Assembly (NCBI GenBank): GCA_046756565.1
Contig: JBHHWO010000003.1
Span: 144 to 64,143 of the forward strand
Direction of reading: 5' to 3'
DNA length: 64,000 bases
From: Thermoanaerobaculia bacterium
GTDB lineage: Bacteria; Acidobacteriota; Thermoanaerobaculia; Multivoradales; JAHEKO01
The notes below the pieces were generated by a model. That model did no database searches. It had not been told where the DNA came from and was given only the letters and a program-made list of their open reading frames with translations. Of the stretch, positions 8,441-56,260 are shown in pieces (within the stretch, counting starts at the first letter, position 1; every line of letters starts with the position of its first letter). The position numbers and the translations under genes are program-made.

Positions 8441-9295
8441 CTAGCTCCGCTGGCCGAGATGGCGCAAACAGGTCGCCAGCGTTCTCTTGAGCTGGCTGCG
8501 CTCGACGACCAGATCCAGAAAACCGTGCTCCAGCAGAAACTCGCTGGTCTGGAAACCCTCGGGAAGGCTCTCGCGGATCGTCTGCTGAATGACTCGCGGC
8601 CCGGCGAACCCGATTAGGGCGCCGGGCTCGGCGACGTTCAGATCGCCCAGCATGCCGAACGATGCGGTCACTCCGCCGGTGGTGGGATCGGTCAGAACCG
8701 ACAGGAACGGAATCCCTTTGTCACGGAGCCTCGCGAGCGCAGCCGAGATCTTTGCCATCTGCATCAGCGACACGACCCCCTCTTGCATCCGGGCACCCCC
8801 GGAGGCCGACACAACGACCAGGCCGCACTTGCGCTTCGAAGCGTACTCCGCCGCTCGGGCGATCTTCTCGCCGACTACCGACCCCATCGAACCGCCCATG
8901 AAGCGGTACTCCATCACCGCGACCACGGCCGGCACGCCTTCGAGATGGCCCTCCACGACGATCACGGCCTCCTCCTCGCCGCTCGTCTTCGAGTTGTCCT
9001 TGACGCGGTCCCGGTAACTCACACGGTCCCGGAACTTCAGCGGGTCCGCCGGAAGCAGACCGCGGAACAGCTCCGTGGGCTGGTCCTCATCGAGCAGAAG
9101 TCGGATCCTCGCGCGGCTGTGGATGCGGAAGTGGTGGCCGCATTTCGGACAGATCTGGAGATTCCGCTCGAGCTCCTTGGAGTAGATGATCTCCCGGCAT
9201 CCGTCGCAACGCACCCACAGTCCCTCGGGGACCGTGCTCCGGGGCCGTTCGGAACCGGCGCTGCGGGGCTTCTTCGATTTGCGGAACCAGGCCAT
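8441..9295 (-). CDS. accD: Acetyl-CoA carboxylase carboxyltransferase beta subunit
   Basis: N-terminal Zn ribbon CDGC...CPKC and a carboxyltransferase domain; 12 bp upstream of folC. Confidence 0.9.
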   Translation of the reverse strand: MAWFRKSKKPRSAGSERPRSTVPEGLWVRCDGCREIIYSKELERNLQICPKCGHHFRIHSRARIRLLLDEDQPTELFRGLLPADPLKFRDRVSYRDRVKDNSKTSGEEEAVIVVEGHLEGVPAVVAVMEYRFMGGSMGSVVGEKIARAAEYASKRKCGLVVVSASGGARMQEGVVSLMQMAKISAALARLRDKGIPFLSVLTDPTTGGVTASFGMLGDLNVAEPGALIGFAGPRVIQQTIRESLPEGFQTSEFLLEHGFLDLVVERSQLKRTLATCLRHLGQRS

Positions 9296-9317: not shown

Positions 9318-11630
9318 TCAGCCGATCAGGAGCTTGATGGCGCTGGCGACCAGCCCGGCCGCAAGCAGACCGGCCATGACTCCCCACCAGAATCGCGCAG
9401 TCTTGGTGCGCGGCAACCTGACGGCGGTCGTGAGGGTCCGTGTCCCGGCAGAGACGGGCTCCTGCTCCGCAGTCGAGATTGTCGAAGCCACGTCTTCCAC
9501 GGCGGGCACATCCGCCGGCTCGGCAAACAGGTCGGTGAAGAACTCACTCAGGGTCTGTTCGCTCGGGGAGGCGTCGAGTGTCCGCAGCAGCGCTCTCAGA
9601 TCCGACTCCAGTTCGCCCGCGCTCTGGTAGCGAACCGACGGTTTCTTGGCCAGCGTCTTGACCAGGATCCTTCGGATTTCCTGGGGCAGGCCCGGGCAGT
9701 GCTTGCGAGGATCGTCGAAATTCCCGGCTCGCACGGCATCCAGCAGAGAGATCTCGTTGTCGGCTTCGTACAGACGGCGCCCGGCGATGATCTCGTACAT
9801 GACGCTGCCGAGCGAGTAGATGTCGCTGCGGGCGTCCACTGCCTTCCCCGAGGCCTGCTCGGGCGACATGTACTGGAGCTTTCCTTTGAGGGCCCCGATC
9901 TCGGTCTGAATCACGGACGAGACGGCTTTCGCGACTCCGAAATCGCAGAGCCTCACGCGTCCGTCACGGCCCAGCAGGACGTTGCGCGGCGACACGTCGC
10001 GGTGGACGAGCCCCATAGGCGCACCCTGGGAGTCCTGGCGAGTGTGTGCGTACTCGAGACCCCGCGCCAGCTGGGCGCCGATCAGGAGAGCCAGCCCGAT
10101 GGGCATCTGCTCGGATCGCTGACGGAGCCGATTCAGCAGGCTGCGCAGGTCCCGGCCGTCAACATATTCCATCGCTATGAAGAAGCTCGACCCGATCTTG
10201 CCGAGGTCGTAGATCTCGACGAGATTCTCGTGACTGAGCTGAGCGGCCAGCTTCGCCTCTTCGATGAACATCGCGACGAATTCGCTGTTTTCTGCGAGGT
10301 GCGGAAGGATCTTCTTGATAGCCACCGTCTTACGGAAGCCCTCCATGCCGAGCATGCTCGCCCGCCAGACCTCGGCCATACCTCCCACCGCGATCCGCTC
10401 GTCGAGCTTGTACTGGCCAAAACGAACACCGCCGCCATCCGTGTCCCCGCGAGCCGGATCCGGAGCGTCCGCCTCAGGCCCGGCGGGCTCGACGCCCGCC
10501 GAGGCGCCAACCGCACTCGGCTCCTCTTCCGGGATCGCCTCATCCGACAGGGCTGCGGCCGGCGCAACCGGGGAGACCGCCGCGGAGACCTCGTCGTCCC
10601 CGCCCTTGAGATCCTCCGACTCCGCATCTTCCGAGAGCTCCGACGCAACCTCGGCTGAGGAGCCCACGGGCTCGGCTTCCGCGTCGGCGGCGCCAGCCTC
10701 GACAGACAGCTCGGGGCTCAGCGTGCGGACCAGCGCTTCTATTGGATCTTCCGGCTGATGCGCCAATTGAGCGTCCGGCAGCTCGTCAGGCTCCGCGGCC
10801 AACTCCTCGGCCTTTGGCTTCTCGGCCGGCTCTTCGATCGACTCCTCGGTCGGTTCATAAGCTTCGGACCCAGCCAGCTCAGCTGCCGTCTCGGGCTCGT
10901 CGGCACTCGAATCGGCAATCTCCAGGGACTCTTCGAATGCCACACCGGACGCCGACTCGGGTTCCCCATCCCCGACCAGCGAGTCGAGCTCGGCCAAAGC
11001 TGCAGTCACCGCGCTGGGCACCTCCTCGGCCAAGTCCTCATCGAAGGGTGGCGGCGCCTCCTCGGTCTCCTGCGAACCGGCTTGGGCAGCGGCGGATTCC
11101 AGCCCGGGCGGAGGAGCCTCAGCTTCCGGCTCAGCCTCGGGCTCCGGCGCCGGCGCCGGATCGGCCTCGAGCTCCGAGGCCGGGAGCTCACCCATCTCCG
11201 AGAGAAGGTCGCCGAAGATCTCTTCGGACCCGAGCTTTTCGCCCATCATGGGTGTGATCGGTCCGGTCGAGTGATGCGGCAACGACATGACCCGCTCGGC
11301 AGCGTCGAGCAGCTCTTGGGCCCGAGGCGGCTTGCTGAGAATCTGATCCGCGCCGGCCTCGAACGCACCGAATGCATCCTCGGCACCCTCCGCGGGCTCC
11401 AGGAGGAGCACTCCGGGTCCGCCGTTCCGCGAGCCGAAGGTACGCACGAGCTCGCTGGCTCCATCGACCTCAAAGTCAACGATCACCAGCCCCGGCTCGT
11501 GATCCGCACTGGCCCGAAGCGCGGCCTCCCGATCCTCTGCAGTGGTCACGAACCAGCCTTGCGAGCCGAGGACGCTGCGTACATGGCGCCCGATGCGGCC
11601 GTCGTTGGAAACCACGAGAATCACGACCAT
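9318..11630 (-). CDS. Hybrid protein: N-terminal receiver (REC)-like domain, long acidic E/A/P-rich linker, Ser/Thr protein kinase domain, C-terminal TM helix
   Basis: REC-like fold in the first ~115 aa (…VIVDFEVDG…ILSKPP). Kinase motifs YKLDERIAVGGMAEVW, AIKKI, HRDVSPRNVLL, DFGVAKA, SPEQ. C-terminal FWWGVMAGLLAAGLVASAIKLLIG. Confidence 0.8.
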   Translation of the reverse strand: MVVILVVSNDGRIGRHVRSVLGSQGWFVTTAEDREAALRASADHEPGLVIVDFEVDGASELVRTFGSRNGGPGVLLLEPAEGAEDAFGAFEAGADQILSKPPRAQELLDAAERVMSLPHHSTGPITPMMGEKLGSEEIFGDLLSEMGELPASELEADPAPAPEPEAEPEAEAPPPGLESAAAQAGSQETEEAPPPFDEDLAEEVPSAVTAALAELDSLVGDGEPESASGVAFEESLEIADSSADEPETAAELAGSEAYEPTEESIEEPAEKPKAEELAAEPDELPDAQLAHQPEDPIEALVRTLSPELSVEAGAADAEAEPVGSSAEVASELSEDAESEDLKGGDDEVSAAVSPVAPAAALSDEAIPEEEPSAVGASAGVEPAGPEADAPDPARGDTDGGGVRFGQYKLDERIAVGGMAEVWRASMLGMEGFRKTVAIKKILPHLAENSEFVAMFIEEAKLAAQLSHENLVEIYDLGKIGSSFFIAMEYVDGRDLRSLLNRLRQRSEQMPIGLALLIGAQLARGLEYAHTRQDSQGAPMGLVHRDVSPRNVLLGRDGRVRLCDFGVAKAVSSVIQTEIGALKGKLQYMSPEQASGKAVDARSDIYSLGSVMYEIIAGRRLYEADNEISLLDAVRAGNFDDPRKHCPGLPQEIRRILVKTLAKKPSVRYQSAGELESDLRALLRTLDASPSEQTLSEFFTDLFAEPADVPAVEDVASTISTAEQEPVSAGTRTLTTAVRLPRTKTARFWWGVMAGLLAAGLVASAIKLLIG

Positions 11631-11718: not shown

Positions 11719-12462
11719 ATGGCTGGACACAGTAAGTGGGCGCAGATCAAACGGAAGAAGGCGGTGACGGACGCCCGCCGGGGACAACTCTGGACCCGGC
11801 TTCTCAAAGAGATCACCGTGGCTGCCCGGCTCGGCGGCGGTGATCCGGATGGCAACGCGCGCCTCCGAGTAGCGGTGCAAGAAGCGCGCGGGAACAATGT
11901 GCCGGCGGCCAATATCGAGCGAGCGATCAAGCGTGGCACGGGAGAGCTCGAGGGGTTTTCGTACGAAGAGGTGTCCTACGAGGGCTACGGACCCGGAGGC
12001 GCGGCGATACTGGTCGAGGCGGTCACCGACAATCGAAATCGCACGGTGGCGGAGGTCCGGCACCTTTTCTCCAAGCACGGAGGCAACCTGGGAGAGAACG
12101 GCTGCGTGTCCTGGATGTTCGACAAGCGCGGCTATCTGGCGTTCGAGTCCGATTCGATGACCGAAGAGGCCTTCGTGGAGCTCGCCCTGGAGCTCGACGT
12201 CGATGACCTCGCGTCCGAGGAGGACGGGCACGAGCTGTTCACGTCTCCGGAGAGATATCTGGAGGTCCGAGAGGCGGTCGCGGCCAGGGGCGTGGAGCCG
12301 GTGACCGGCGAAGTGGCCATGCTGCCCAAGAACTACGTCGATCTGCCCGAGGACAAGGTGCATACCGTGCTCAAGTTGATTGACGCGCTCGAGGACCTGG
12401 ACGACGTCCAGAGCGTGTGGAGCAACGTCAACATCGAGGCCGTCGCCGCCGGTGCAAGCTGA
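11719..12462 (+). CDS. yebC: YebC/PmpR-family transcriptional regulator
   Basis: MAGHSKWAQIKRKKA... is the canonical YebC N-terminus; ruvC lies immediately downstream, as in many bacteria. Confidence 0.9.
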   Translation: MAGHSKWAQIKRKKAVTDARRGQLWTRLLKEITVAARLGGGDPDGNARLRVAVQEARGNNVPAANIERAIKRGTGELEGFSYEEVSYEGYGPGGAAILVEAVTDNRNRTVAEVRHLFSKHGGNLGENGCVSWMFDKRGYLAFESDSMTEEAFVELALELDVDDLASEEDGHELFTSPERYLEVREAVAARGVEPVTGEVAMLPKNYVDLPEDKVHTVLKLIDALEDLDDVQSVWSNVNIEAVAAGAS

Positions 12463-12970
12463 CCGATCGGCTGCCAACGTACGGATCCTAGGGCTGGACC
12501 CCGGCAGCCGCCACACGGGCTTCGGGGTAATCGACCAGAAGGCAGGCCGACTGCAGCCGGTTCGCTTTGGTCGCTTCTCGCTCCCACCCAAGTCCGACCT
12601 GGCGAGCCGCCTGGCGGAGCTCGACGCTCAGCTGAGCGCGCTCGTAGACGAGCTCGAGCCCACGCACGCCGCGCTCGAAACTCCGTTCCAGGGCCTCAAC
12701 CCCCGGTCTCTGATCATCCTCTCCCAAGCCCGGGGCGTTCTGATCGCGGCACTCGCCCGGCGCAGGATCCCGATCACCGAATACACCCCCACGGAGGTCA
12801 AGAGCGCGGTGTCCGGGTACGGCCGCGCTGCTAAGTCTCAGGTGGGCCGGATGGTCTGCCAAATCCTCGCCCTGGGGAACGAAAAACCGTCCGAAGACGC
12901 CGCCGACGCACTCGCGGTGGCCATCTGTTGCGCCAACCGCAGCCACTTCGAACTGCTTAGGACCGAGTAG
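12452..12970 (+). CDS. ruvC: Holliday junction resolvase RuvC
   Basis: RILGLDPGSRHTGFGVI... matches the RuvC N-terminus and catalytic Asp. I use the GTG at 12452 (11-bp overlap with yebC); the track ORF begins at the ATG at 12380, deep inside yebC. Confidence 0.8.
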   Translation: MQADRSAANVRILGLDPGSRHTGFGVIDQKAGRLQPVRFGRFSLPPKSDLASRLAELDAQLSALVDELEPTHAALETPFQGLNPRSLIILSQARGVLIAALARRRIPITEYTPTEVKSAVSGYGRAAKSQVGRMVCQILALGNEKPSEDAADALAVAICCANRSHFELLRTE

Positions 12971-13182: not shown

Positions 13183-13857
13183 GTGGCAGAATTCGGCGGT
13201 ACTTTCGTCAAGATCTTTCGTGATGGCGGCTTTGTCATGTGGCCGCTTCTGGTGTTCTCGATTCTCTCGGTTATCTTCATCATCGAGCGCTGGCTGGCTC
13301 TGCGGCGGGCCAAGATCAACGTCAATGAGTTCCTGGCCAAGACCCGCAAGGAGCTGATCGTCAACCGCTCGGTCAAGAACGCGATCAAGGTCTGTGAGGA
13401 CTATCGTGGCCCGGTTGCCTCGATCCTCAAGGCTGGATTGCTGAAGTACGGCCAGCCCCGTGAAGATGTCGAGAAGACGATCGAGAACGCAGCCCTCTAC
13501 GAGATGGGCCGGCTCGAGCGCAACCTTGTCTGGCTCGCCAGTATCGCCAACGTCGCGCCGCTGCTCGGTTTCTTCGGAACCGTCGTCGGCATGATCAAGT
13601 CCTTCGAGGCGCTGGCCGAAGCCGGTCTCTCGAATCCGGGCCTGGTCGCCGCGGGTATCTCCGAAGCCCTGATCACAACCGCGGCAGGTCTGTTCGTCGC
13701 GATTCCGGCCCAGTTGTTCTACAACTTCTTCATGAGCCGAATCAACACATTTGTGCGCGACATCGAGACTTCCTCGAACATGCTGCTCGAGACCTTCAAC
13801 GAGATGGAACGGAGTGGGATCACCGGCGACGCGCCCAGCCAGCCAGGGCGCGCCTAG
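13183..13857 (+). CDS. exbB: ExbB/TolQ/MotA-family proton channel
   Basis: GTG start preceded by AGGAGG (13171-13176). Three TM segments and the conserved ...LASIANVAPLLGFFGTVVGMI... motif. Confidence 0.85.
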   Translation: MAEFGGTFVKIFRDGGFVMWPLLVFSILSVIFIIERWLALRRAKINVNEFLAKTRKELIVNRSVKNAIKVCEDYRGPVASILKAGLLKYGQPREDVEKTIENAALYEMGRLERNLVWLASIANVAPLLGFFGTVVGMIKSFEALAEAGLSNPGLVAAGISEALITTAAGLFVAIPAQLFYNFFMSRINTFVRDIETSSNMLLETFNEMERSGITGDAPSQPGRA

Positions 13858-13878
13858 GTTTCTAATAGGAACGACGCG

Positions 13879-14322
13879 ATGAGGCTAAAAGCCCGTTCGG
13901 TACAAAACACCGGAATTCCCACGGCATCGATGGCGGATATCGCCTTTCTGCTGATCATCTTCTTCATGGTGACGATCTCGTTCGAGGTCGACAAGACGAC
14001 CGTGACTCTTCCGGAAACCGACCTGCGCTTCGAGATTCCCAAGCAGGCCGCCTATGTCTCGGTCACCGAGAACGGACAGATCCGCGTCTCGAGCGGGGAA
14101 GAGATCAGCGTTCCGGTTCCCGGACCGGATGAGGTGCTCTCCTTTGCCGCCGGCGTGGTCGCGGCCGATCCCGGCAAGGCCTTCGTGCTCAAGGCGGACA
14201 AGGAAGTGCCCTACCAGTACGTCGACGGCGTCATGGACTCCTTGAAGCAGGCCAAGGCGCAGGTCATCTATCTTCTGTCGAATCAGGAGACGGTCGAAGA
14301 TGGTGATGGGACGGAGGGCTAG
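13879..14322 (+). CDS. exbD: ExbD/TolR biopolymer transport protein
   Basis: MADIAFLLIIFFMVT single TM plus an ExbD periplasmic domain. Confidence 0.85.
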   Translation: MRLKARSVQNTGIPTASMADIAFLLIIFFMVTISFEVDKTTVTLPETDLRFEIPKQAAYVSVTENGQIRVSSGEEISVPVPGPDEVLSFAAGVVAADPGKAFVLKADKEVPYQYVDGVMDSLKQAKAQVIYLLSNQETVEDGDGTEG

Positions 14323-14325
14323 GCG

Positions 14326-14763
14326 ATGAAGATCAAGAAAATGCAAGCCAGTGACGAGATCCCGACTTCCTCGATGGCGGACATCGCCTTCCTGCTGATC
14401 ATCTACTTCATGGTGACCACGACTTTTGCGGCTACCCGCGGTCTGGACTTCTCGCTACCTCCCGAGGACGACACCCCGCCGATGGTCGAAAAGGAAGAGG
14501 CGGTGCTCATCGAGATCCAGGCCGGCGGCGTCTACGTGGTCGACCAGAAGCCCATGCCCCTGTCCGAGATCCTCGACTACCTCAAGCCGAAGCTCGAGCG
14601 AAACCCGAAGAAGCCGGTCATCATCCGGCCGCAGCCAGATGCCCAGTACGGCTACATGGTCGCGGTCTTTGACGAACTGCGGCAGGGCGAGGACAAGATC
14701 GGCATGAAGGTGGACAATATCTCCATCCCGACACAGCGCGAAATCGAAATGTTCTGGTTCTAG
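14326..14763 (+). CDS. exbD: Second ExbD/TolR paralog
   Basis: MADIAFLLIIYFMVTTTF...; 3 bp after the first exbD. Confidence 0.85.
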   Translation: MKIKKMQASDEIPTSSMADIAFLLIIYFMVTTTFAATRGLDFSLPPEDDTPPMVEKEEAVLIEIQAGGVYVVDQKPMPLSEILDYLKPKLERNPKKPVIIRPQPDAQYGYMVAVFDELRQGEDKIGMKVDNISIPTQREIEMFWF

Positions 14764-14772
14764 GAGAGCAGA

Positions 14773-15489
14773 ATGGCCGAAGAAGAAAAGGTTCAGCGCA
14801 GCGCGGTGGACGAAGCCACCGACCTGGCGGCGGGCGACCTGATGACCTTCGCGCACGAGTACGACGAGGATCGCAAGACGATGCGCTGGGCAGCTGTGGC
14901 TGCGGTGATTCTGCACATCATCTTCTTCATCATCCAGTTCCCTGAGATGGTGGCCGCGGAACGGGAACAGAAGAAAGCCAAGGTCTACGTCGTCCAGCAG
15001 GTGCGTTTCAAGCCGCCGCCACCCAAGCAGCAGCAGGAGATCCCCAAGCCCAAGTCGAAGAAGGTCCCGATTCCGGATCCGACCCCGGACGAGCCCGAGC
15101 CCATCCGACTCCAGGAAGAGATCGAGCCCGAGGTCGAGATGCCCGACACCGACATCATCATGGGCATTCCGGAAGGGCCTCCTCCGATGGAGCCCACCGG
15201 TCCGATCCGTGTGGGAGGTGACGTCAAGCCACCCAAGAAGACCTTCTTCCCGTCGCCCCAGTACACCGAGATCGCGCGCAAGGCGCGGATCACGGGGGTC
15301 GTGATCGTCGAGGCGATCATCAACAAGCAGGGCAACGTCACCAACGTCAAGGTGCTCAAGGGCCTTCCGATGGGCCTCGACCAGGCGGCCGCCGATGCGG
15401 TCGCGCGCTGGAAATTCGAGCCGGCTACGCTCAACGGCAAGCCGGTGGCGGTGATCTACAACCTCACCGTCAATTTCCAATTGCAGTGA
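14773..15489 (+). CDS. tonB: TonB-family energy transducer (TM anchor, Pro/Lys-rich spacer, TonB_C domain)
   Basis: TM AAVAAVILHIIFFIIQF, a PPPPKQQQEIPKPKSKKVPIPDP spacer, and C-terminal ...ARITGVVIVEAIINKQGNVTNVKVLKGLPMGLDQAAADAVARWKFEPA.... Confidence 0.8.
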   Translation: MAEEEKVQRSAVDEATDLAAGDLMTFAHEYDEDRKTMRWAAVAAVILHIIFFIIQFPEMVAAEREQKKAKVYVVQQVRFKPPPPKQQQEIPKPKSKKVPIPDPTPDEPEPIRLQEEIEPEVEMPDTDIIMGIPEGPPPMEPTGPIRVGGDVKPPKKTFFPSPQYTEIARKARITGVVIVEAIINKQGNVTNVKVLKGLPMGLDQAAADAVARWKFEPATLNGKPVAVIYNLTVNFQLQ

Positions 15490-15728
15490 GGCCGCGCCAG
15501 CGAGAAACGGCTCCAAAGCGAGAGCCGGCCTCGCGGGCGAGGTTCGAAGCCGTCCGTAAGTGAGGACAAACCGGCTGAAACCGGCCTGGGTCTAGCGCCA
15601 TGCAACATGACTGTGAACTCGCGTTCCGAGCCAGGGCTCGGACCGAAGCAGCCAATCCCGTGGCACGGCGCTTGCTCTGTCAAGATGGCGTGTAGGGTGA
15701 AGTGATATCGATCGAAAGGAGACTCGAA

Positions 15729-16904
15729 ATGAAGCTCAGAAACACAACAGCCGTCATCGCCGTGCTGGCCATGATGTTGACGGCCGGCATCGCCAGCGCC
15801 GGTGACTATGAGGACGGCGTTGCCGCCTTCAAGAAGGCCGACTGGGCCACCGCCATCGCCAAGTTCAAGGCCCAGGTCGATAAACAGCCGGAGTGGGCCG
15901 GCGGACACTTCATGCTCGGTTGGGCTTACCTGAAGAACAAGAACACGCGCGACGCGATCACCCATCTCCGCAAGGCCTACGACCTCGAGCCTGCCAACGC
16001 CAACCATCAGATGCGCTTGGGCGAGGCCTACGTCGCGGCCAACCGCAACAGCGATGCAGTCGCGTTTCTGAGCAAGATCGACGCTTCGGCCCTGCCCAAG
16101 AACGCGCAAGGCTACCTGGCGCAGCTCAAGGCGGTCGCGCTCACCAAGAGCGGGCAGGCCGGGAGCGCGGTGGCCGAGTTGAAGAAGTCGGCCGCAGCGA
16201 ATCCCAACGACGCCGACATCCAGTTCCAGCTCGGATCGACCGCTGCTGCTGCCGGTGATACCAGGACGGCCCTGTCGGCGCTCGCCAAAGCCGCTTCTCT
16301 CGACCCCGGCGACAGCAAGAAGCAACTCGCCTATGCCAAGGTCCTGATCGGCCAAGCCGTGCGCATGCCCAAGGGCTCGGCCAAGGACGGCCAGTACCGG
16401 AAGGCCGCCGCCGCGGCCCAGAGAGTCGTCTCCTCGAACGCTTCGTTCGACAATCTGATGCTCCTCGGCGATGCCGAGCTCGGCTCGAAGTCCTACGACG
16501 CGGCGATCGCTACCTACAAACGAGCGTCGGCCAAGAACTCGGCGGACTGGCTCCCCGAGTACTACATCGGCCAGGCCTATACCGCCAAAGGCCAGTACAG
16601 ATCGGCCGAGTCGTCTCTGAAGACGTCTCTCGACCGTGCCAAGACTGCCGCAGACCAGGCCAAGGTCTGGAAGCAGCTCGGCTTCGTCTACGAGAAGCAA
16701 AGGAACTTCACGGAAGCGATCTCTTCCTACAATCGGGCCGGCGACGGCGCGGGGGCGGAACGTGCCCGGAAGAACCAAGAGACGCAAGCCGAGAATAGGC
16801 GGATCGAGGCCGAGAACACCGAGTTGGCGAAGCTCAAGGCCGAGCAGGAAGCTCTGGAAGCCGAGCTGAAGAACCTCCCGGGCGCCGCGCCGCCCCGCTT
16901 CTAG
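15729..16904 (+). CDS. Secreted TPR-repeat protein (TonB-system-associated)
   Basis: ATG at 15729 with AAGGAG 7 nt upstream; signal peptide MKLRNTTAVIAVLAMMLTAGIASA; multiple TPR-like A/L/Y-rich repeats; C-terminal coiled coil. Confidence 0.75.
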   Translation: MKLRNTTAVIAVLAMMLTAGIASAGDYEDGVAAFKKADWATAIAKFKAQVDKQPEWAGGHFMLGWAYLKNKNTRDAITHLRKAYDLEPANANHQMRLGEAYVAANRNSDAVAFLSKIDASALPKNAQGYLAQLKAVALTKSGQAGSAVAELKKSAAANPNDADIQFQLGSTAAAAGDTRTALSALAKAASLDPGDSKKQLAYAKVLIGQAVRMPKGSAKDGQYRKAAAAAQRVVSSNASFDNLMLLGDAELGSKSYDAAIATYKRASAKNSADWLPEYYIGQAYTAKGQYRSAESSLKTSLDRAKTAADQAKVWKQLGFVYEKQRNFTEAISSYNRAGDGAGAERARKNQETQAENRRIEAENTELAKLKAEQEALEAELKNLPGAAPPRF

Positions 16905-16930
16905 TCCGACCCACCGACCGAGTCTTCTAT

Positions 16931-16964
16931 GAGAGGCCGCCGAAAGGCGGCCTCTCTTTCATCT
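16931..16964. terminator. Bidirectional Rho-independent terminator between the convergent TPR gene and ftsX
   Basis: GAGAGGCCGCC-GAAA-GGCGGCCTCTC perfect 11-bp stem followed by TTTCATCT. Confidence 0.8.
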
Positions 16965-16975
16965 CGCATCGGCGT

Positions 16976-17869
16976 CTACCCGAAAACCCCGGTCCTTTCG
17001 CGCAGCGGGATGAGCCCGCCGATGAGACCGGCAAGGCCCCCCAGGCTCAGCAGCGCCAGGATCTGGCTACGGGTAAGGAAGAACTCGAGCAGAGCCCCTC
17101 GCACGAACCACGGTACCTCGGCGGCCGCCAGCCCCCAGTAGCCCAGCCAGAGAGCGCCCAGAGCGAAGCCCGCTCCGAGAACGCCTTGGACCAGTCCCTC
17201 GATGACGAACGGGCCTCTTACGAAGAACTCGGTGGCGCCAATCAGGCGCATCGCCGAGATCTCCTTGCGATAGACGAAGGTGGACAGCCGTACGACGCTG
17301 GCGATGCTGACTGCAGCCGCGACCATCAGAATCCCACCTATGAGCAGGCCCAGAGTGCTCGCCACGGACGCCGCCGTATTCATCGTTTCGAGCCACTCCC
17401 GGTCGTCGTCGACCTCGGCGACACCGGCCAGGTGGGACAACTCGGCGGCCAACCCTGCGACCCGGGTCCGGTCGCCGGATACCTCGAGCTCGATGGATGC
17501 CGGGAGCGGCGAACGCTCGAGATCCTCGGTCACCTCATCCAGCTCCGGAAAGCGGCTGCGGAAGCGCTCGGCGGCCTCTTCAGGGGAGACTTCACGGGCC
17601 ACCACGAACGAGTCGAGCGACTCTAGATACTCATGCAGGCGCTCGCGGTCCGCTGGCGCGATGTTTCCGTCGAGAAACACCACGACCTGCGCCTGAGCGC
17701 GCCAGGTGTCGACCGCCCGCGCCATATTGCCGCCCAGCAGGACCAGGGTCCCGCCGATGAACAGGCTGAGGGCGGTCGTCGCGACCGCGAGCGAGCTGAT
17801 CCGCCATCCACGCAGCAGATTGCGAAGCGCTTCGCCGAAGAAGTACCTGAGCGCCTGAAACAGGCTCAT
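16976..17869 (-). CDS. ftsX: Cell division permease FtsX
   Basis: Four-TM FtsX topology with a periplasmic loop; 4-bp overlap with ftsE. Confidence 0.85.
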   Translation of the reverse strand: MSLFQALRYFFGEALRNLLRGWRISSLAVATTALSLFIGGTLVLLGGNMARAVDTWRAQAQVVVFLDGNIAPADRERLHEYLESLDSFVVAREVSPEEAAERFRSRFPELDEVTEDLERSPLPASIELEVSGDRTRVAGLAAELSHLAGVAEVDDDREWLETMNTAASVASTLGLLIGGILMVAAAVSIASVVRLSTFVYRKEISAMRLIGATEFFVRGPFVIEGLVQGVLGAGFALGALWLGYWGLAAAEVPWFVRGALLEFFLTRSQILALLSLGGLAGLIGGLIPLRERTGVFG

Positions 17870-18624
17870 CCGAACACAGGGGCCTCGGCCGTGGCAGTCG
17901 GAGACGGTTCCAGGGGACGATCCTCGACCAACCGGCCCTCGTCCAGACGCAGGAGCCTTTGCCCGAACTCCCGCCGCAGGTCCGGGTCGTGGGATGCCAG
18001 CACGATCGTGGTTCCATCTCGATGGAACTCGGAAAAGAGCTTCATGATCTCTCTCGAGAGATCCGGATCGAGGTTGCCGGTCGGCTCGTCTGCCAGCACG
18101 ACGTCGGGCTTGTTGACAACCGCCCGCGCGATTGCGACCCGCTGTTGCTCACCCCCGGACAGCTCGGCCGGGTAGGCATCGGCGTGATCCCGCAAGCCGA
18201 CCCGATCGAGCGCGCGCAGGGCCAGCTCACGGCGCCGCTCGGCGTCCATTCCCATGATCAAAGGCAAGAAGCTCACGTTCTCATGCACGGTCTTGCGCTC
18301 GATCAGCGAGAAGTCCTGAAAAACAATTCCCATCGTTCGCCTCAGGAACGGTACCTTCTTCGCCGGCAGCGACCCGACGTTGCGTCCATTGACCACGATC
18401 TGACCTTCGGTAGGCACCTCGGCACGGTAGATGAGGCGCAAGAACGTCGTCTTGCCGGCGCCGCTCTTTCCGGTCAGTACGACGAACTGCCCGCTCGGAA
18501 TGCTCAGGCTGACCTTCGACAACGCCACCCGGTTGCCAGGGTAGGTCATCGACACGTTGAAGAACTCGATCACGACGAAACCCGTGCGGCTGGTATTGCC
18601 AGTGGAAGTCCATCCACTGAGCAT
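17866..18624 (-). CDS. ftsE: Cell division ATP-binding protein FtsE
   Basis: Walker A GKSGAGKTT, ABC signature LSGGEQQRVAIARA, Walker B VVLADEPTGNLD. An alternative GTG start at 18573 would give the canonical IEFxNV N-terminus. Confidence 0.9.
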   Translation of the reverse strand: MLSGWTSTGNTSRTGFVVIEFFNVSMTYPGNRVALSKVSLSIPSGQFVVLTGKSGAGKTTFLRLIYRAEVPTEGQIVVNGRNVGSLPAKKVPFLRRTMGIVFQDFSLIERKTVHENVSFLPLIMGMDAERRRELALRALDRVGLRDHADAYPAELSGGEQQRVAIARAVVNKPDVVLADEPTGNLDPDLSREIMKLFSEFHRDGTTIVLASHDPDLRREFGQRLLRLDEGRLVEDRPLEPSPTATAEAPVFG

Positions 18625-26144: not shown

Positions 26145-26145
<1 letters not shown>

Positions 26146-26912
26146 TAGCCCGTCACCTCGTCTCGCGTGACCACCAGTGAGACCACGTCCGATCTGCGCA
26201 GCGGGTGACCCGGCAGAGGATGCTGTCTGAGAATCACCCCGGGCGCGATTCCCTCGTAGGACTCGAACTTCACGCTGCCCAGCCGGATGCCCCGCCGCTC
26301 GAAGTAGCGGCGGACGTCCGAATAGCTCCGATAGATCAGATCAGGCATAACGAAAACGGCTTCCCGGTCATCGAGATTCAGGTAAAGATCGACGCCGCTG
26401 CCCCGGCTGACCTGAGTACCCGCCGGTGGATTCTGGGTCACCACGGTTCCCGAGCGCCCGCTCCGGCTAAAGACGTTCGCAACCCTTCCGAGCGCAAGAC
26501 CTTCGGCCACCAGCGTTACCTGAGCGGCCTGGAGAGCCCGCTCCGAAACGTCCGGCACCGTGACGACCTCCTGCCCCAGAGATACAACCGCCTTGACCGC
26601 GGTGCCGCGCTTCACGAGCGAGCCGGAGCGCGGATCCTGGCGCACCACATGCCCTTCCGGCACCGAATCGTCGTAGCGCGCTTCCTCGTCCCAGTCCAGA
26701 CTAAGGCCTTGATCGCGCACCAGCGCCTCGGCCTCGGCCATCGGGGTGCCTTCGAGATTCGGCACGGCAGTCACGCCGCTGCGCACGAAGAAACTGAACG
26801 CGAAGTAGGAGGTCAACACGAACGCACCTCCAAGCAGCGCGGCGTAGGCGACCCACGCCAGCCAGCGCAACGGCCGCGCCGAAAAATCACGCAGTTTCTT
26901 GGATCGACTCAC
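26145..26912 (-). CDS. Stand-alone membrane-anchored protein with three PASTA domains
   Basis: N-terminal TM LAWVAYAALLGGAFVLTSYFAF, then three ~65-aa repeats each beginning VP(N/D)L...G..V.Q.P..G (PASTA pattern). No kinase or transpeptidase domain. Confidence 0.7.
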
Positions 26913-40356: not shown

Positions 40357-41403
40357 CTATGACGCTTGCCGGTCCGAAACGCGCCTTTGCGCGAGATCCA
40401 GCACCGCGCTCCGAAGCTTGCCCGGGTCGTGGCGGATCAGATCGCCTTCCTCGAGCAGATCGGCCCCGATCAGGGCCGGTCGCCCTTCCGAGGCGCGGTG
40501 CTCGGGCATCCGGACCGGCTCGGCTCCGGCCTCCGCATAGCGACTCACTACCCCTTCCGGAAGGGCGCCCCGGTGCGCGAGGACCACGTCCACGAGATCA
40601 AGACCCGCATGCCGCCGGAGCGCTTCGAGGTGTGCCGCAGCATCCATGCCGTCGGTCTCACCCGGCTGGGTCATCAAGTTGAGCACCAGCGCGACCTGAG
40701 CGTGGCTCCCCGCGAGGGCGTCGGCGATCCCCGCGATCAGCAAATTGGGCAGAATCGAGGTGTAGAGAGATCCCGGACCCAACAAGATCAGGTCCGCGGC
40801 TTCGATCGCTTCGATGGCGGGAGGAAACGCCGCGGCCCGGACCGGCTCGAGCTCCATGGTCTCGAGCGCCTCACCGGACCGGCCGATCGCCGATTCGCCT
40901 TCGTACTCCGTGCCCGAGATTCCCCGACCCCGGAGCCTGACGTCCGTCAGGGTCGCCGGAAGGATCCGCCCGCGCACCGAGAGAATCGATTCGGCGGTCA
41001 GAATCGCCTGCGAGAAATCGCCTGTGATTCCGGTCAAGGCGGTCAGGAACAGGTTACCGAAGGAGTGCCCGGCCAGGCCCTCGCCCATCGCAAAGCGGTA
41101 TTGGAAGAGCTTGGCGACCAGATCCTCGTCGTCGGCCAGCGCCACCAGGCAATTGCGGATGTCCCCCGGTGCGGGCACGCCGAAGTCTCGACGCAGGCGC
41201 CCAGAGGAGCCGCCGTCGTCGCTGACCGTCACGATCGCGGTCAGATCCGAGAGCTCGTCGTCGACCGCGGGCTTCAGAGCCCTGAGCAGTACGGCGAGGC
41301 CGGTGCCGCCACCGACCGCGACGACCCGCGGAAGCTTGGATTCAGTTGCCTGCAAAAAGAGACGCGTGATCAGGGTCGCTCCGCAGGGAGTCGAAATCCT
41401 CAT
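40357..41403 (-). CDS. yvcK: YvcK/UPF0052 (CofD-like) family protein
   Basis: ...VVAVGGGTGL...VTVSDDGGSSG...GPGSLYTSI... Start ambiguous: TTG 41415, ATG 41403 or TTG 41355; all overlap the upstream gene's 3' end. Confidence 0.75.
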   Translation of the reverse strand: MRISTPCGATLITRLFLQATESKLPRVVAVGGGTGLAVLLRALKPAVDDELSDLTAIVTVSDDGGSSGRLRRDFGVPAPGDIRNCLVALADDEDLVAKLFQYRFAMGEGLAGHSFGNLFLTALTGITGDFSQAILTAESILSVRGRILPATLTDVRLRGRGISGTEYEGESAIGRSGEALETMELEPVRAAAFPPAIEAIEAADLILLGPGSLYTSILPNLLIAGIADALAGSHAQVALVLNLMTQPGETDGMDAAAHLEALRRHAGLDLVDVVLAHRGALPEGVVSRYAEAGAEPVRMPEHRASEGRPALIGADLLEEGDLIRHDPGKLRSAVLDLAQRRVSDRQAS

Positions 41404-41974
41404 CGTGAGCCGCAACCACCCGGTTCCGGGCGTTGGCGTCGATCGCCTTGGTCAAGAAATCCGCGGCCTTCTCGTCGTCGCCCTGAAGGGCGTGAATCGC
41501 AGCCGCCAGATACGCGAAGCGCTCGTCCTTCGCGGACCGTCCGCCCCGCATGCAGATATCGAGTGCCTGGTCGAGCTCGCCGCGATTGCGCAGGAAAACG
41601 GCCTCCAGATATGGATCGTCGGCTCCCTGGCCCTTTTTGGCCAGGTTGTGCTCGCAAACCGCCAGATAGCGCCGGGCGCTCTGCCCGAGGGAGGGCAGGT
41701 CGGTTGCCTTGCGCACCTGCTCGAGCATCTTCGCGGCCTCTCGCCACTTCTTCTGATAGGTGGCTTTCACCGCTTTCTCGAACAGCTTGACGTTGGGATC
41801 GTCTGCCAGGTTGGGCGCGACGACCATGTCGTGGGCCGTGAGACCCAGCTCGGTGAGCTTGGCTTCCACGGTATCGGCGTCGGTCTTGAATCGCTCGGCA
41901 AGCTCCGCGAGGCGACGCTTCTTCGCATAGCGCTTCAGGTAGGTCAGGTCTCCGGATTTCCAGCGCTTCGCCAT
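41342..41974 (-). CDS. Hypothetical protein (basic N-terminus, TPR-like C-terminal half) encoded between mglA and yvcK
   Basis: 210-aa high-GC3 ORF with 3-bp spacing to mglA; helical repeat-like ...YLAVCEHNLAKKG... / ...YLAAAIHALQGDDEKAADFLTKAID.... Confidence 0.5.
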   Translation of the reverse strand: MAKRWKSGDLTYLKRYAKKRRLAELAERFKTDADTVEAKLTELGLTAHDMVVAPNLADDPNVKLFEKAVKATYQKKWREAAKMLEQVRKATDLPSLGQSARRYLAVCEHNLAKKGQGADDPYLEAVFLRNRGELDQALDICMRGGRSAKDERFAYLAAAIHALQGDDEKAADFLTKAIDANARNRVVAAHDEDFDSLRSDPDHASLFAGN

Positions 41975-41977
41975 GCT

Positions 41978-42562
41978 CTACCTTTTCCTCAGTTCGACCA
42001 GGATCTGTTTCGCCACCGCCTTGAGCGTGTCGAATACGCCAACGCCCTGGGGAGCTACCGCTTCGAACGTCGGCTCGCGCTTGTAGTTGAGCATCCGGTA
42101 CATCTCGTCGACCGGCATGGCGTTGGGAAGGTCGCGTTTGTTGAACTGCAATGCCGACGGAACCGTCTTCAAGTCGAAGCCGTGATCGCGCAGGTTCGCT
42201 TCCAGATTGCGAATCGACTCGACGTTCGCCTCCATGCGCTCACGCTGGCTGTCGGCCACGAAGATCACGCCGTCCACGCCTTTGAGGATGAGCTTCCGAC
42301 TGGCGTCGTAGAAGACCTGGCCGGGCACGGTATAGAGGTGGAAGCGAGTCGTAAAACCGCGGATCGACCCGAGATCGAGCGGCAGGAAATCGAAAAACAG
42401 CGTTCGGTCCGCCTCGGTAGCAAGTGAGATCATCTTGCCCTTCCGGTCGGGCGCGGTCTTGTTGTAGATGTACTGGAGGTTGGTCGTTTTGCCGCCCAGG
42501 CCGGGGCCGTAGTAGACGATCTTGCAGTTGATCTCCTTGGCCGCATAGTTGATGAACGTCAT
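41978..42562 (-). CDS. mglA: Ras-like small GTPase MglA
   Basis: [36 protein letters not shown]...[33 protein letters not shown]... is near-identical in pattern to Myxococcus MglA. Confidence 0.9.
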
Positions 42563-42608: not shown

Positions 42609-43088
42609 CTATTCGCTGAACAGGGCGTCGATGTCCTCGTCGGTGATCTCCGAGAACGGGCTGGGCTCCGAAACGCCCTCCTCCGGGAGCGCCTTGGCGT
42701 CCATCTCATCGAAGACCTTCTTGAGCTCCACGCTCGCTCGCTTGACTCTCAAACGCACCAGCCCCAGAGACGAGCGCTCGTCGAAGATCACCAGGAGAAT
42801 CGCACGGCGCGCGACGATCGAGATATGGATGTGGTCCCGCTGCCCCTCGTGGAAGAGGACGGAGAACTCCCGTTCACCGATCAGCTTGGCCAGGCCGTCG
42901 GTCGCGGCGACGTTGCCAGCGGTCAGCGAGGCCAGGGAGGTCGAATCGAACTCTTCGGTCTCGCCCGCGGCCGCAATGTGCTGGCCGTTCTTGTCGATCA
43001 GGAAGACCGCCTTGGCGTTGGCGTCCTGGCGGAGCCTGCGCAGGGCGTCCTCTAGACGCCGAAACTCTGTTTCGAAAACTACTTCCAT
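42609..43088 (-). CDS. mglB: Roadblock/LC7-domain GTPase-activating protein MglB
   Basis: Roadblock fold sequence upstream of mglA (...AVFLIDKNGQHIAAAG...); acidic C-terminal tail. Confidence 0.8.
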   Translation of the reverse strand: MEVVFETEFRRLEDALRRLRQDANAKAVFLIDKNGQHIAAAGETEEFDSTSLASLTAGNVAATDGLAKLIGEREFSVLFHEGQRDHIHISIVARRAILLVIFDERSSLGLVRLRVKRASVELKKVFDEMDAKALPEEGVSEPSPFSEITDEDIDALFSE

Positions 43089-53811: not shown

Positions 53812-53815
53812 CTCT

Positions 53816-54670
53816 TCAACCTTCCTCGACCAAACGTCCCTCGAGGCGGCCGAAGACGACCCGCTCTCCGACCGGAAGCTCGACTTCACCCTCCGTCTGG
53901 GCGCCCGCCACGAACGTGTGGTTGCGGCTGCCTTCGTCGCGCACCAGCACCTTGTCGCCCGTCACGGTCACTACCGCGTGACGGCGAGAGACGTCCGGGA
54001 CGTTCAGGCGCACTCGGGCGTCCTTGGTGCGACCGACGAGGTTTTCGCCCTCGTCGAGCTGGAAGCGCTGGACTCGGCCCGCCATCTGGAGCTCCAGAAA
54101 CAGGCGGCGGCCGGGCGCACCCGGCTGCGCAGGCCTGCTTGCGCTCGCGCTCGCCTCGGCCAGGATCTCGGGAATCGGCACGACGACCTTCTCGACACGA
54201 GTACCGCCGTCGTCCGCCAGCTCCTTGGACGCGGCCGGCTTCTTTTCTGCCAGCTCGTCCTCGGACCGCTTCTCCTCGGCTCCGTCGTCGCGCAGGGCCG
54301 CCGGCAGAATTGGGATCTCGCCGTCCGTTTGCGTCTTGTCGACGGGAGGGATATCGATGGTGTCGAACTCACCGCCTTCGGTATCGAGAGCCTGAAAGAT
54401 AAACCTCTCGCTACCGCCGAAGCAGACCATGCTGAGCGGACCGATCGGCTCCGGCCGCTCGAGGCGCACGCCGTCCACTTCGGTGCCGTTCAGGCTTCCG
54501 AGGTCCTCGATCAGATACCTCTCGCTGTCGGTATCGAACGCAATCCGGGCGTGCTCGGTCGACACCACCGAAGCCTGGATGCACACCGTGCTCTCGGCCG
54601 AGCGCCCGATCGTGGCCTCGGCGCCGATCTCGAACTCACCGTGCTCGCGTGATATCAGTTTTGCCTTCAT
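53816..54670 (-). CDS. Tandem FHA-domain protein
   Basis: FHA 1: ...ATIGRSAESTVCI...VSTEHARIAF...YLIEDLGSLNGTEVDGVRL.... FHA 2: ...LVGRTKDARVRLNVPDVSRRHAVVTV..VLVRDEGSRNHTFV.... ATG at 54670 overlaps the upstream stop by 4 bp. Confidence 0.75.
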   Translation of the reverse strand: MKAKLISREHGEFEIGAEATIGRSAESTVCIQASVVSTEHARIAFDTDSERYLIEDLGSLNGTEVDGVRLERPEPIGPLSMVCFGGSERFIFQALDTEGGEFDTIDIPPVDKTQTDGEIPILPAALRDDGAEEKRSEDELAEKKPAASKELADDGGTRVEKVVVPIPEILAEASASASRPAQPGAPGRRLFLELQMAGRVQRFQLDEGENLVGRTKDARVRLNVPDVSRRHAVVTVTGDKVLVRDEGSRNHTFVAGAQTEGEVELPVGERVVFGRLEGRLVEEG

Positions 54671-56247: not shown

Positions 56248-56260
56248 GAGCTCAGCTCCG

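Follow-up and report, generated by a model that had tools for sequence, protein, structure and literature searches.

The window, by which we mean the entire 64-kb stretch of DNA analysed, contains on its minus strand a complete ORF of 770 amino acids whose features and conserved neighbours are as follows.

9318..11630, minus strand: complete ORF of 770 aa, with pseudo-receiver, acidic disordered linker, Hanks kinase and C-terminal TM anchor
11280..11630, minus strand: REC-fold pseudo-receiver, aa 1–117 (Pfam, AF2, Foldseek, residue mapping)
10431..11279, minus strand: acidic E/A/P/S-rich intrinsically disordered linker, aa 118–400, containing KLGSEEIFGDLLSE (charge, pLDDT)
11196..11237, minus strand: conserved post-REC motif KLGSEEIFGDLLSE, aa 132–145 (family conservation)
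9528..10430, minus strand: Hanks-type protein kinase domain, aa 401–701 (Pfam, invariant columns, PknA/PknB alignment, AF2)
9408..9527, minus strand: juxtamembrane segment, aa 702–741, mostly predicted disordered (pLDDT <50 at 712–741)
9324..9407, minus strand: C-terminal TM helix or tail anchor, aa 742–769, RFWWGVMAGLLAAGLVASAIKLLI, followed by G770 and the stop
8441..9295, minus strand: accD, 22 nt downstream of the kinase gene on the same strand
11719..12970, plus strand: yebC and ruvC, divergent conserved neighbours across an 88-nt intergenic region
13183..16904, plus strand: a TolQ/ExbB-like protein, two TolR/ExbD-like proteins, a 238-aa TonB_C protein and a TPR protein, listed for context only

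The codon composition of the ORF (GC3 0.79 vs GC2 0.47) is of the coding type, and the anatomy proposed in the first-pass annotation, a REC fold, an acidic linker, a full Hanks kinase and a single C-terminal TM helix, was recovered by Pfam, AlphaFold and hydropathy analyses. Likewise, the HMM scan suggested there returned both Response_reg and Pkinase above threshold, the former only marginally. This is a real gene, predicted from its motifs to encode an active, membrane-tethered Ser/Thr protein kinase. No terminator-like site was found between the kinase gene and accD, and in scans for promoters and terminators no hit exceeded the background of shuffled sequence; co-transcription of the kinase gene with accD-folC is probable.

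AlphaFold models the N-terminus as a (βα)5 fold (pLDDT 90), which the receivers of Spo0F, NtrX and KdpE match at TM 0.80–0.85 in Foldseek, and the Response_reg hit (residues 4–111, 33.6 bits, E 4.7e-8) lies just above the Pfam gathering cut-off (GA) of 30.2 bits; the head has, then, the fold and the profile of a canonical receiver (PF00072). Alignment with KdpE, together with canonical spacing rules, places the active-site quintet at S8, N9, D52, E78 and K100. The phospho-acceptor Asp is present, with D52 aligning to KdpE D52 at the end of β3, as is the conserved Lys at the end of β5, followed by Pro (K100-P101); these are the Asp of 'VIVDF' and the 'KP' named in the first-pass annotation. The Mg2+-binding acidic pair after β1 is missing, with S8/N9 opposite KdpE E8/D9, and in an independent family alignment of 116 sequences its second position is S, Q, P, A, G or N, never D. 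Also missing is the Thr/Ser at the end of β4, which is E78 by the K-22 spacing rule, a rule that recovers T/S in CheY, KdpE and PhoB, or L77 in the HMMER register; S or T occupies position 78 in 5 of 156 orthologues and position 77 in none.

A receiver without any one of these five residues is by definition a pseudo-receiver (PsR; PMC12632262), and the query lacks three, both positions of the acidic pair and the Thr/Ser. By its residues, its REC domain is thus a pseudo-receiver, because S8/N9 replace the metal-binding acidic pair and E78 the Thr/Ser; it is not an aspartate-less receiver (ALR; PMC4395418), because the Asp is kept. In this it resembles the PsR domains and atypical response regulators already described, PF00072-type (βα)5 domains without conserved active-site residues (PMC12632262; PMC4395418). 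The first-pass annotation had read the protein as feeding a two-component phospho-Asp input into a Ser/Thr kinase, a claim to be given up if the acid-pocket residues were absent on alignment, and S8/N9 decide against it. Nor did a search for a cognate histidine kinase retrieve any HisKA or HATPase_c domain from the scanned ORFs of the 64-kb window.

Related loci were collected with an alignment of the kinase, as a REC-only alignment was too divergent. The query combines an N-terminal PsR with the post-REC motif, a kinase with HRDVSP[RQ]N, a TM helix and a location between yebC/ruvC and accD/folC, and by these features is an orthologue of a widespread family of Acidobacteriota (Thermoanaerobaculia/Holophagae). 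The slot is fixed in the family, with yebC-ruvC divergent and then gene-accD-folC: AccD lies downstream of the family gene in 36 of 47 loci and RuvC upstream in 37 of 48. Among 156 non-redundant orthologues, the set used for quintet and motif counts, none has the full canonical quintet, and Asp is all but absent from the Mg-binding position. K occurs at the Lys position in 85 of 115 relatives. The acceptor position holds S in 59, N in 46, D in 27, G in 12 and T or A in 6 each; the Asp is therefore absent from 129 of the 156, which nonetheless keep both domain and motif, so that most orthologues are true ALRs, unlike the query. All of the ca. 25 proteins in the query's clade keep D52, and those closest to the query also keep K100-P101; at the DD positions this D-containing clade has S/T plus A/G/S/N/P, and its K is often N, S, R, H or G.

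The PsR and motif form a module that is always N-terminal (169 clusters at E<=1e-30) and that also persists, with tether and anchor, in ca. 22 natural clusters without a kinase. Two of these, P0181 and P0187, are PsR-TM-TonB_C proteins, the first occupying the same yebC/accD slot; about 20 consist of PsR, acidic linker and TM, among them P0220 and P0244, which carry the RFWLGVAAGLL anchor of the query's clade. We set aside P0121, in which PsR and motif are fused to a hybrid histidine kinase, as its only source is one 3.6-kb contig whose GC content shifts close to the fusion point, and it may be a chimeric assembly.

The linker, initially described as ca. 250 aa of acidic, low-complexity sequence, is indeed both, but spans 280 aa (residues 121–400) with 78 D+E against 6 K+R. 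Against 300 equally long segments drawn from the remaining predicted proteins of the 64-kb window, its acidic fraction (0.279, z=5.2) and net charge (−72, z=−6.1) are extreme, and AlphaFold predicts it to be disordered (pLDDT <50). The repeated DNA reported for it did not hold up as a true tandem repeat, since TRF gives only repeats of ca. 2 copies of 12–30 nt at 11118–11183. Across the family the linker varies from 95 to 620 aa, and strong acidity is found mainly in the query's clade and the kinase-less forms. The 14-residue motif near its start, KLGSEEIFGDLLSE in the query and occurring once in the 64-kb window, has the family consensus [KR]-L-T-S-x-[DE]-[IL]-F-G-D-[VL]-L-A-E, with F139 conserved in 141, G140 in 133, D141 in 138 and L143 in 138 of the 156 orthologues; 125 of them have T at position 134 and 118 have S at position 135, the query keeping S135. 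AF2 gives the motif a low-confidence helix (135–145, pLDDT ~50) with no confident docking or contact.

The kinase domain is matched by Pkinase over residues 410–669 (124 bits), modelled at pLDDT 80–98 over 401–701, and carries the VAIK Lys (K439), αC Glu (E458), HRD Asp and catalytic-loop Asn (HRDVSPRN; D545, S547, N550), DFG (D563), activation-loop T576 and SPE expected of a Hanks-type enzyme. K439, E458, D545, N550, D563 and S589-P590-E591 are invariant in the family alignments, and on these motifs the kinase is active-looking. The Lys typical of the catalytic loop of Ser/Thr kinases (HRDxKxxN) is missing, with S547 where PknA has K, a change that may bear on activity and specificity; the S-P of HRDVSPRN is invariant family-wide and followed by R or Q at +4. 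Among solved structures, the kinase domains of Mycobacterium tuberculosis PknA and PknB are closest (E ~1e-42); they share with the query the VAIK Lys, HRD, DFG, activation-loop Thr, SPE/APE and a single TM helix after the kinase. The query differs from them in the Lys to Ser change in the catalytic loop, an 8-residue insert before HRD, the lack of PASTA or any other extracytoplasmic sensor, and the N-terminal pseudo-receiver, absent in PknA/B. The PASTA kinase model NF033483 (PknB_PASTA_kin) scores 268 bits over profile positions 7–349 only, below its cut-off of 450, and a Pfam scan found no PASTA repeats in the protein. A stand-alone PASTA protein sits farther away than the flanks of related loci extend.

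The C-terminal helix (742–769; Kyte-Doolittle peak 2.2) is Gly/Ala-rich and also appears in the AlphaFold model. The tail-anchored end is no assembly artefact, because seven independent relatives (P0002–P0008, 58–79% identity) end alike and accD starts 22 nt later. In most family members the TM helix is followed by a Pro-rich spacer and then, in the periplasm, by a TonB_C domain (PF03544); P0062, for instance, has this domain, and the query, which ends one residue after the helix, lacks it. In a crude, unbootstrapped NJ tree, the query's clade is nested between TonB_C clades, and C-tails shrink from ~200 to 140 to 75 aa, with intermediate forms keeping a remnant of a charged periplasmic helix; on this rough tree and truncation series, TonB_C was apparently lost from the query's clade, and loss is favoured over gain. 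Pseudo-receiver with motif, Hanks kinase and TonB_C have each been lost independently in nature.

Two known systems resemble parts of this layout. Bacillus subtilis YabT (PMC3708118) is likewise a Hanks kinase with a TM segment and no extracellular receptor domain, so that activation has to reach it on the cytoplasmic side; unlike the query, it depends on a DNA-binding motif for activation and is described with no REC-like domain and no long acidic tether. Myxococcus xanthus GltJ (PMC11135422) is laid out like the full-length relatives: its cytosolic regulatory part contains a functional linker motif, and one TM helix leads into a flexible periplasmic stretch and TonB-C. The family's genomic neighbourhood contains TolQ/TolR-like motor genes; GltJ differs in having ZnR and GYF domains and no kinase, and the cytosolic parts are not homologous. 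This analogy holds for the family and not for the window protein, whose TonB_C part is lost.

We consider it probable (roughly 0.7) that the gene encodes a membrane-tethered, active-looking kinase with a pseudo-receiver head that likely receives no phospho-Asp signal from a histidine kinase, and that it belongs to a TonB_C-less clade of a syntenic family. The C-terminal helix would hold the Hanks-type kinase at the cytoplasmic face of the inner membrane. In its full form, a family protein begins with pseudo-receiver and motif, followed by the disordered tether and the kinase; behind the TM helix come the Pro-rich spacer and, in the periplasm, TonB_C. The window's clade has presumably lost all that lies behind the helix. 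The REC-fold head most likely functions without Asp phosphorylation by a histidine kinase; with the 14-residue motif it probably serves, independently of phosphorylation, to bind partners, to oligomerise or to regulate, and the long acidic, flexible tether would keep it near the membrane-bound kinase. Phosphorylation-independent partner binding or regulation is the most likely role of the head, a proposal resting on conservation because AlphaFold docks the motif without confidence.

A broader reading, which we regard as tentative and rather doubtful, takes the whole family as an undescribed trans-envelope signalling device, in which a cytoplasmic PsR/motif head on its long tether, usually with a kinase, would be joined by a single TM helix to a TonB/TolA-like domain in the periplasm that contacts the outer membrane or peptidoglycan. 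The window protein would then be a natural truncation, a purely cytoplasm-facing kinase; its conserved Asp, together with Glu78 and Lys100, might hold the head in an 'on-like' state. If true, this would give the Acidobacteriota a counterpart of PASTA kinases or GltJ-type TonB-C switches. TolQ/TolR-like motor genes and ftsEX lie beside the family locus.

It is unlikely that PsR and motif serve as a cis-regulatory or substrate module, with the fused kinase phosphorylating the L-T-S motif, or the acceptor position in relatives, and so relieving autoinhibition or driving dimerisation in a self-contained one-protein switch. The prevalence of T and S at positions 134/135, retention of S135 in the query and the Ser/Thr that 65 of 156 members have as acceptor residue are compatible with such a switch, and activation of PrkC is described as needing phosphorylation of a disordered region (10.1101/2025.11.01.686061). 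However, the ca. 22 kinase-less clusters retain module and motif, and module function therefore cannot depend on the fused kinase; 64 members have N, G or A as the acceptor residue, which speaks against a phospho-site common to the family at this position, and the AF2 model offers no confident contact.

We also judge it improbable that the head is a functional phospho-acceptor REC, with D52 phosphorylated by a small-molecule donor or by a histidine kinase encoded at another locus, and the Hanks kinase thereby switched on or off. The canonical fold, the Response_reg match above threshold, the clade-wide D52 and K100-P101 would fit this, but the loss of both metal-binding acidic residues and of the Thr/Ser, the substitutions at the DD and K positions within the D-containing clade itself, the 129 Asp-less orthologues that keep domain and motif, and the lack of a histidine kinase within 64 kb argue against it. 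As a counterpoint to the pseudo-receiver reading, the clade-wide D52 with K100-P101 makes a residual or unorthodox phospho-Asp chemistry conceivable, and a partner histidine kinase may be encoded outside the 64 kb. Finally, a decaying remnant, that is, a truncated, non-functional copy of a TonB_C-bearing kinase, is very improbable: the periplasmic part of most family members is missing, but the ORF is intact with coding-type GC3, the catalytic motifs are all intact and invariant, and P0002–P0008 have the same tail-anchored end, with the syntenic position kept. Purifying selection on the clade is already suggested by conservation.

The family is apparently undescribed. Literature searches on the family, on REC-Hanks fusions and on kinase-TonB fusions found nothing specific, and a 2005 survey of kinase architectures mentions neither a REC-Hanks nor a kinase-TonB combination. 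Pseudo-receiver-type domains are enriched on uncommon output domains (PMC12632262; PMC4395418), and S6 Table of PMC4395418 lists Pkinase~Response_reg, Pkinase~T2SE_Nter~Response_reg and fungal Pkinase~Pkinase~Response_reg; in the two of its four parts examined, the N-terminal REC-to-Pkinase order does not occur. From known PsR proteins, those of the query family differ by an N-terminal PsR, a disordered tether of 95–620 aa to the kinase, a family-specific motif and membrane anchoring.

Had it held, the first-pass annotation would have revealed a direct His-Asp to Ser/Thr relay in one polypeptide; it does not, and the finding that stands is a large family, fixed in its synteny, from classes of Acidobacteriota that have been little studied. 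Bacterial pseudo-receiver function has been called a mystery (2025 J Bacteriol review), and the independent module losses provide a natural deletion series for asking what these domains do; the family also permits a test of the coupling of a kinase to a TonB-like envelope-spanning protein. For annotation, a Response_reg match on a kinase should not be equated with two-component input unless the active-site quintet is checked.

The TolQ/TolR-like block adjoins all tail-anchored or TonB_C-less members with enough flank and conserved synteny. A complementarity between fused TonB_C and a separate exbB-exbD-exbD-tonB block was rejected, as ten loci with fused TonB_C also have the block; the residual association (8/10 vs 10/36, Fisher p=0.008) is phylogenetically confounded. 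TonB-like coupling of the query's anchor to ExbB/ExbD is likewise unsupported, since this anchor is Gly/Ala-rich and contains no His, unlike the TM segment of the separate TonB protein (AAVILHIIFF), which has one.

The ORF at 9318..11630 of the minus strand is a real gene, encoding a protein of 770 aa, and its codon-position GC (GC3 0.79, GC2 0.47) is in line with that of the other genes of the window, which has 65% GC. The first-pass annotation had described a receiver-like domain, an acidic linker, a Hanks kinase and a tail anchor in a single polypeptide; Pfam, composition and AlphaFold confirmed this architecture. The HMM scan that it called for found both domains, Response_reg at residues 4-111, with a score that barely exceeds the gathering score (33.6 bits, E 4.7e-8; gathering score 30.2), and Pkinase at residues 410-669 (124 bits). 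Among NCBIfam models, the top matches are to generic PknB-like kinases and to OmpR/KdpE-type receivers, every one of them well under its curated cut-off. The full-length model predicts the kinase domain with confidence, and helix 742-769 is the sole strongly hydrophobic segment, with the stop codon one residue further. The linker is indeed acidic and of low complexity, with a length of 280 aa instead of the ca. 250 first estimated: residues 121-400 contain 78 Asp plus Glu vs 6 Lys plus Arg, and the acidic fraction (0.279) and net charge (-72) are, respectively, 5.2 and 6.1 SD off the mean of 300 equal-length windows from the window's other predicted proteins. It is predicted to be disordered (pLDDT <50), and the repeated sequence reported for its DNA turned out to be low-complexity only, with no real repeat array.

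Residues 1-122, modelled with AlphaFold using 48 family sequences as input, show a textbook (beta-alpha)5 topology (pLDDT 90.2), and Foldseek comparisons against the PDB retrieved the receivers of Spo0F, NtrX, KdpE and PhoP, with TM-scores of 0.80-0.85. We mapped the five receiver active-site residues (acidic pair, acceptor Asp, Thr/Ser and Lys) by aligning the domain with HMMER to the solved receiver of KdpE, and with a family alignment including KdpE. Both alignments place S8 and N9 at the metal-binding acidic positions (E8/D9 in KdpE, D12/D13 in CheY), D52 at the phospho-acceptor position and K100-P101 at the conserved Lys. They differ by one residue for the Thr/Ser position, which is E78 or L77, neither of them Ser or Thr; a K-minus-22 spacing rule, yielding T87 in CheY, S79 in KdpE and T83 in PhoB, points to E78. 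By definition, a receiver without any one of these five residues is a pseudo-receiver (PMC12632262, a 2025 J Bacteriol review) and, since residues of the quintet are missing, the domain classifies by sequence as a pseudo-receiver; as it retains D52, it does not count as an aspartate-less receiver. The two-component wiring initially proposed, with a phospho-Asp input into the Ser/Thr kinase, is therefore not supported: the acid-pocket residues, whose absence had been set beforehand as refuting, are missing on alignment. Likewise, the search for a cognate histidine kinase in the 64-kb window retrieved none, with no HisKA or HATPase_c domain in its predicted genes or in the larger intervening ORFs.

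The family agrees with this classification: none of 156 non-redundant orthologues has a canonical quintet. Their acceptor position is occupied by Ser (59), Asn (46), Asp (27), Gly (12), Thr (6) or Ala (6), Asp is practically absent from the second acidic position, and at most five contain Ser/Thr at the T position. In the clade that keeps the Asp, which includes our protein, the first acidic position is also gone (S/T vs E elsewhere), and the conserved Lys is often replaced by N, S, R, H or G. As a separate observation, 65 of the 156 orthologues have Ser or Thr at the acceptor position, in a protein with a Ser/Thr kinase of its own; this residue might conceivably be phosphorylated in them.

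The nearest solved structures to the kinase domain are PknA and PknB from M. tuberculosis (E about 1e-42). K439 (in VAIK), E458, H543-R544-D545, N550 and D563-F564-G565 are invariant in family alignments, as are the activation-loop T576 and S589-P590-E591, and with these motifs intact the kinase looks catalytically competent. It is atypical in two respects: it contains an 8-residue insert ahead of the HRD motif, and the catalytic-loop Lys is replaced by Ser (HRDVSPRN; HRDVKPGN in PknA). Species-representative genomes, Myxococcota and Nitrospirota among them, contain over 600 matches to the pattern LVHRDVSP[RQ], which is therefore the signature of a broad subgroup of kinases rather than a defect of our gene. 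A second Hanks kinase of 627 aa (49672-51555, plus strand), with the catalytic loop HRDVSPDN, comprises an N-terminal Pkinase domain, a TM helix, a spacer rich in Pro and, at the C-terminus, TonB_C, without a REC-like head; the kinase-TonB_C architecture is thus present in the same genome as a paralogue. Adjoining it on the minus strand are two FHA-domain proteins (51586-53889 and 53816-54775), both candidate phospho-Thr readers, one combining Pyr_redox_2, FHA and 2Fe-2S ferredoxin domains and the other containing two FHA domains.

A search of 5.8 billion proteins retrieved an identical protein and graded relatives named Acidobacteriota or Thermoanaerobaculia. Many are of ca. 1000 aa and contain Pkinase plus TonB_C (PF03544), with Response_reg detectable or not. 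The automatic names given by JGI to relatives already read 'serine/threonine protein kinase/CheY-like chemotaxis protein'. In BLAST comparisons, the REC-like N-terminus was present in 116 of the best 120 matches, the remaining four being N-terminally truncated fragments. A family scan covering a single genome for each species yielded 80 loci; in Thermoanaerobaculia, Holophagae/Holophagales and 'Ca. Sulfomarinibacter' these encode the REC-like domain, linker, kinase, TM helix, some 250 aa and TonB_C. For instance, relative P0062 shows, after the TM helix, a spacer rich in Pro and Ala, a charged helix (DEVKRREEELKKKYEDELARRKAELDKL), another Pro-rich stretch and finally TonB_C, a periplasmic layout like that of TonB/TolA. 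Linkers vary from 95 to 620 aa across the family and are unalignable apart from a motif following the receiver fold; they are strongly acidic in the query clade (net charge -20 to -121; family median -3).

In the window, yebC and ruvC lie divergently upstream of the gene, and accD and folC, followed by SHMT, downstream on the same strand. Of 48 loci, 37 have RuvC no more than 2.5 kb upstream, and 36 of 47 have AccD no more than 3.5 kb downstream; because this housekeeping slot is conserved, the family genes are orthologues inherited vertically over at least class-level divergence. The accD start lies 22 nt past the kinase stop and no terminator-like site was found between them; co-transcription is plausible, only by inference. 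In TonB_C-bearing relatives, a conserved ORF of 77 aa, which Pfam does not recognise and which is absent from the 22-nt gap of the window, separates the family gene from accD at these related loci:

L002, 13115-13348: 77-aa ORF
L003, 5834-6067: 77-aa ORF
L086, 2756-2989: 77-aa ORF

The seven nearest relatives (P0002-P0008, 58-79% identity) share the anchor RFWWGV.AGLLAAGL... and stop within a few residues of it. The next nearest (P0009-P0014) have an extra 50-60 residues including a charged-helix remnant, EVRRREAELRE, and more distant relatives have 140-210 residues there without TonB_C. A neighbour-joining tree built from the kinase domain, crude and without support values, places the query clade between TonB_C-bearing clades; it was rooted with the hits of the family scan from Myxococcota, Nitrospirota and Desulfobacterota, which are ordinary kinases with an N-terminal kinase domain. 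A stepwise secondary loss of the periplasmic part is the most parsimonious reading. The same clade keeps the acceptor Asp, and TonB_C is missing from 25 of the 27 members with Asp.

Some 15 residues past the receiver fold, the family shows the motif [KR]-L-T-S-x-[DE]-[IL]-F-G-D-[VL]-L-A-E (KLGSEEIFGDLLSE in our protein, residues 132-145), with Phe139, Gly140, Asp141 and Leu143 conserved in, respectively, 141, 133, 138 and 138 of 156 sequences. AlphaFold predicts it as a helix (135-145) that is not docked with confidence, its pLDDT being only about 50. We ran a profile built from the REC-like domain and the motif against 1.84 billion representative proteins and retrieved 169 clusters (E<=1e-30), all of them matched at the very N-terminus. 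Most are kinase or kinase plus TonB_C proteins, and the short members end inside the linker and look like contig-end fragments. About 22 clusters correspond to complete-looking proteins without a kinase domain. Two of these, P0181 and P0187, consist of pseudo-receiver plus motif, linker, TM helix, spacer and TonB_C, and P0181 (L086, 703-2703) occupies the family slot, in the order yebC, gene, 77-aa ORF and accD. The other ca. 20 (among them P0147, P0148, P0220 and P0244) contain pseudo-receiver plus motif, a highly acidic linker (net charge -21 to -102), a TM helix and a short tail; P0220 and P0244 have the RFWLGVAAGLL anchor of the query clade, the acceptor Asp and the charged-helix remnant. 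Since members without kinase and without TonB_C retain them, pseudo-receiver, motif, tether and membrane anchor are the invariant core of the family, with kinase and TonB_C each dispensable in some lineages. This argues that regulating an attached kinase is not all that the head does, and that it functions without need of Asp phosphorylation. In P0121 (L085, 320-2068), beside yebC, the head and motif are fused to a hybrid histidine kinase (HisKA-HATPase_c-REC). Its only source is one MAG contig of 3.6 kb, whose GC content shifts close to the junction; the protein may reflect a genuine domain swap or an assembly chimera, so we set it aside as evidence for such a fusion.

The protein is most likely a cytoplasm-facing, membrane-tethered Ser/Thr kinase, probably activated by the usual route of activation-loop autophosphorylation at T576; its Gly/Ala-rich TM helix, with small-xxx-small spacing, possibly pairs two copies, helping activation. 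Pseudo-receiver and motif would mediate partner binding or self-association without phosphorylation, with the long acidic tether leaving the head free to range around the anchored kinase. It is speculative to see in D52, E78 and K100 a mimic of an activated receiver.

The neighbourhood, which also includes SLT and LysM proteins, fits an envelope theme, as context and not proof, and contains this block:

13183-18624: TolQ/ExbB-like protein, two TolR/ExbD-like proteins, 238-aa TonB_C protein, TPR protein (weak YbgF/CpoB hit) and ftsX-ftsE

The motor-like genes score better with Tol than with Exb NCBIfam models, all under cut-off, and the block is kept beside the kinase in many relatives, not all. 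We also tested, and rejected, that the fused TonB_C and an adjacent exbBD-tonB block are mutual replacements.

For the full-length relatives, the nearest functional analogy documented here is GltJ from Myxococcus, which combines a regulatory region in the cytosol, including a functional linker motif, with one TM helix, a flexible region in the periplasm and TonB-C, and works alongside a TolQR-like motor (PMC11135422). Both pseudo-receivers and aspartate-less receivers are already well documented. The S6 Table of PMC4395418 lists co-occurrences of Pkinase and Response_reg (Pkinase~Response_reg, Pkinase~T2SE_Nter~Response_reg and fungal Rim15-type), in that table mostly aspartate-less receivers, and there are known examples of membrane Hanks kinases that lack an extracellular sensor, e.g. 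YabT (PMC3708118). Our protein joins two known kinds, a Hanks kinase and a pseudo-receiver. In our literature search we found no description of the family (N-terminal pseudo-receiver plus motif, tether, HRDVSP kinase, TM helix and TonB_C), of its fixed genomic slot or of its kinase-less or TonB_C-less variants. Its main value lies in this natural modular deletion series and in the kinase-TonB_C coupling of the relatives, and not in the two-component/Hanks bridge first proposed.

Other genes of the window deserve mention. Directly upstream of rpe, a 255-aa membrane protein (26145-26912, minus strand) contains three PASTA domains and no kinase domain, covering only positions 333-562 of the PknB-PASTA-kinase profile; a 'sensor without kinase' and a 'kinase without sensor' share this genome. 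A Roadblock/LC7-domain protein (42609-43088, minus strand), whose fold is found in MglB-type GTPase regulators, neighbours an ORF of 537 aa without Pfam match (40814-42427, plus strand). Finally, the minus-strand region 54667-63999 contains a multihaem c-type cytochrome cluster (c554, c3/c7 and NapC/NirT-like), together with a cNMP-binding 4Fe-4S protein and two large ORFs without family.
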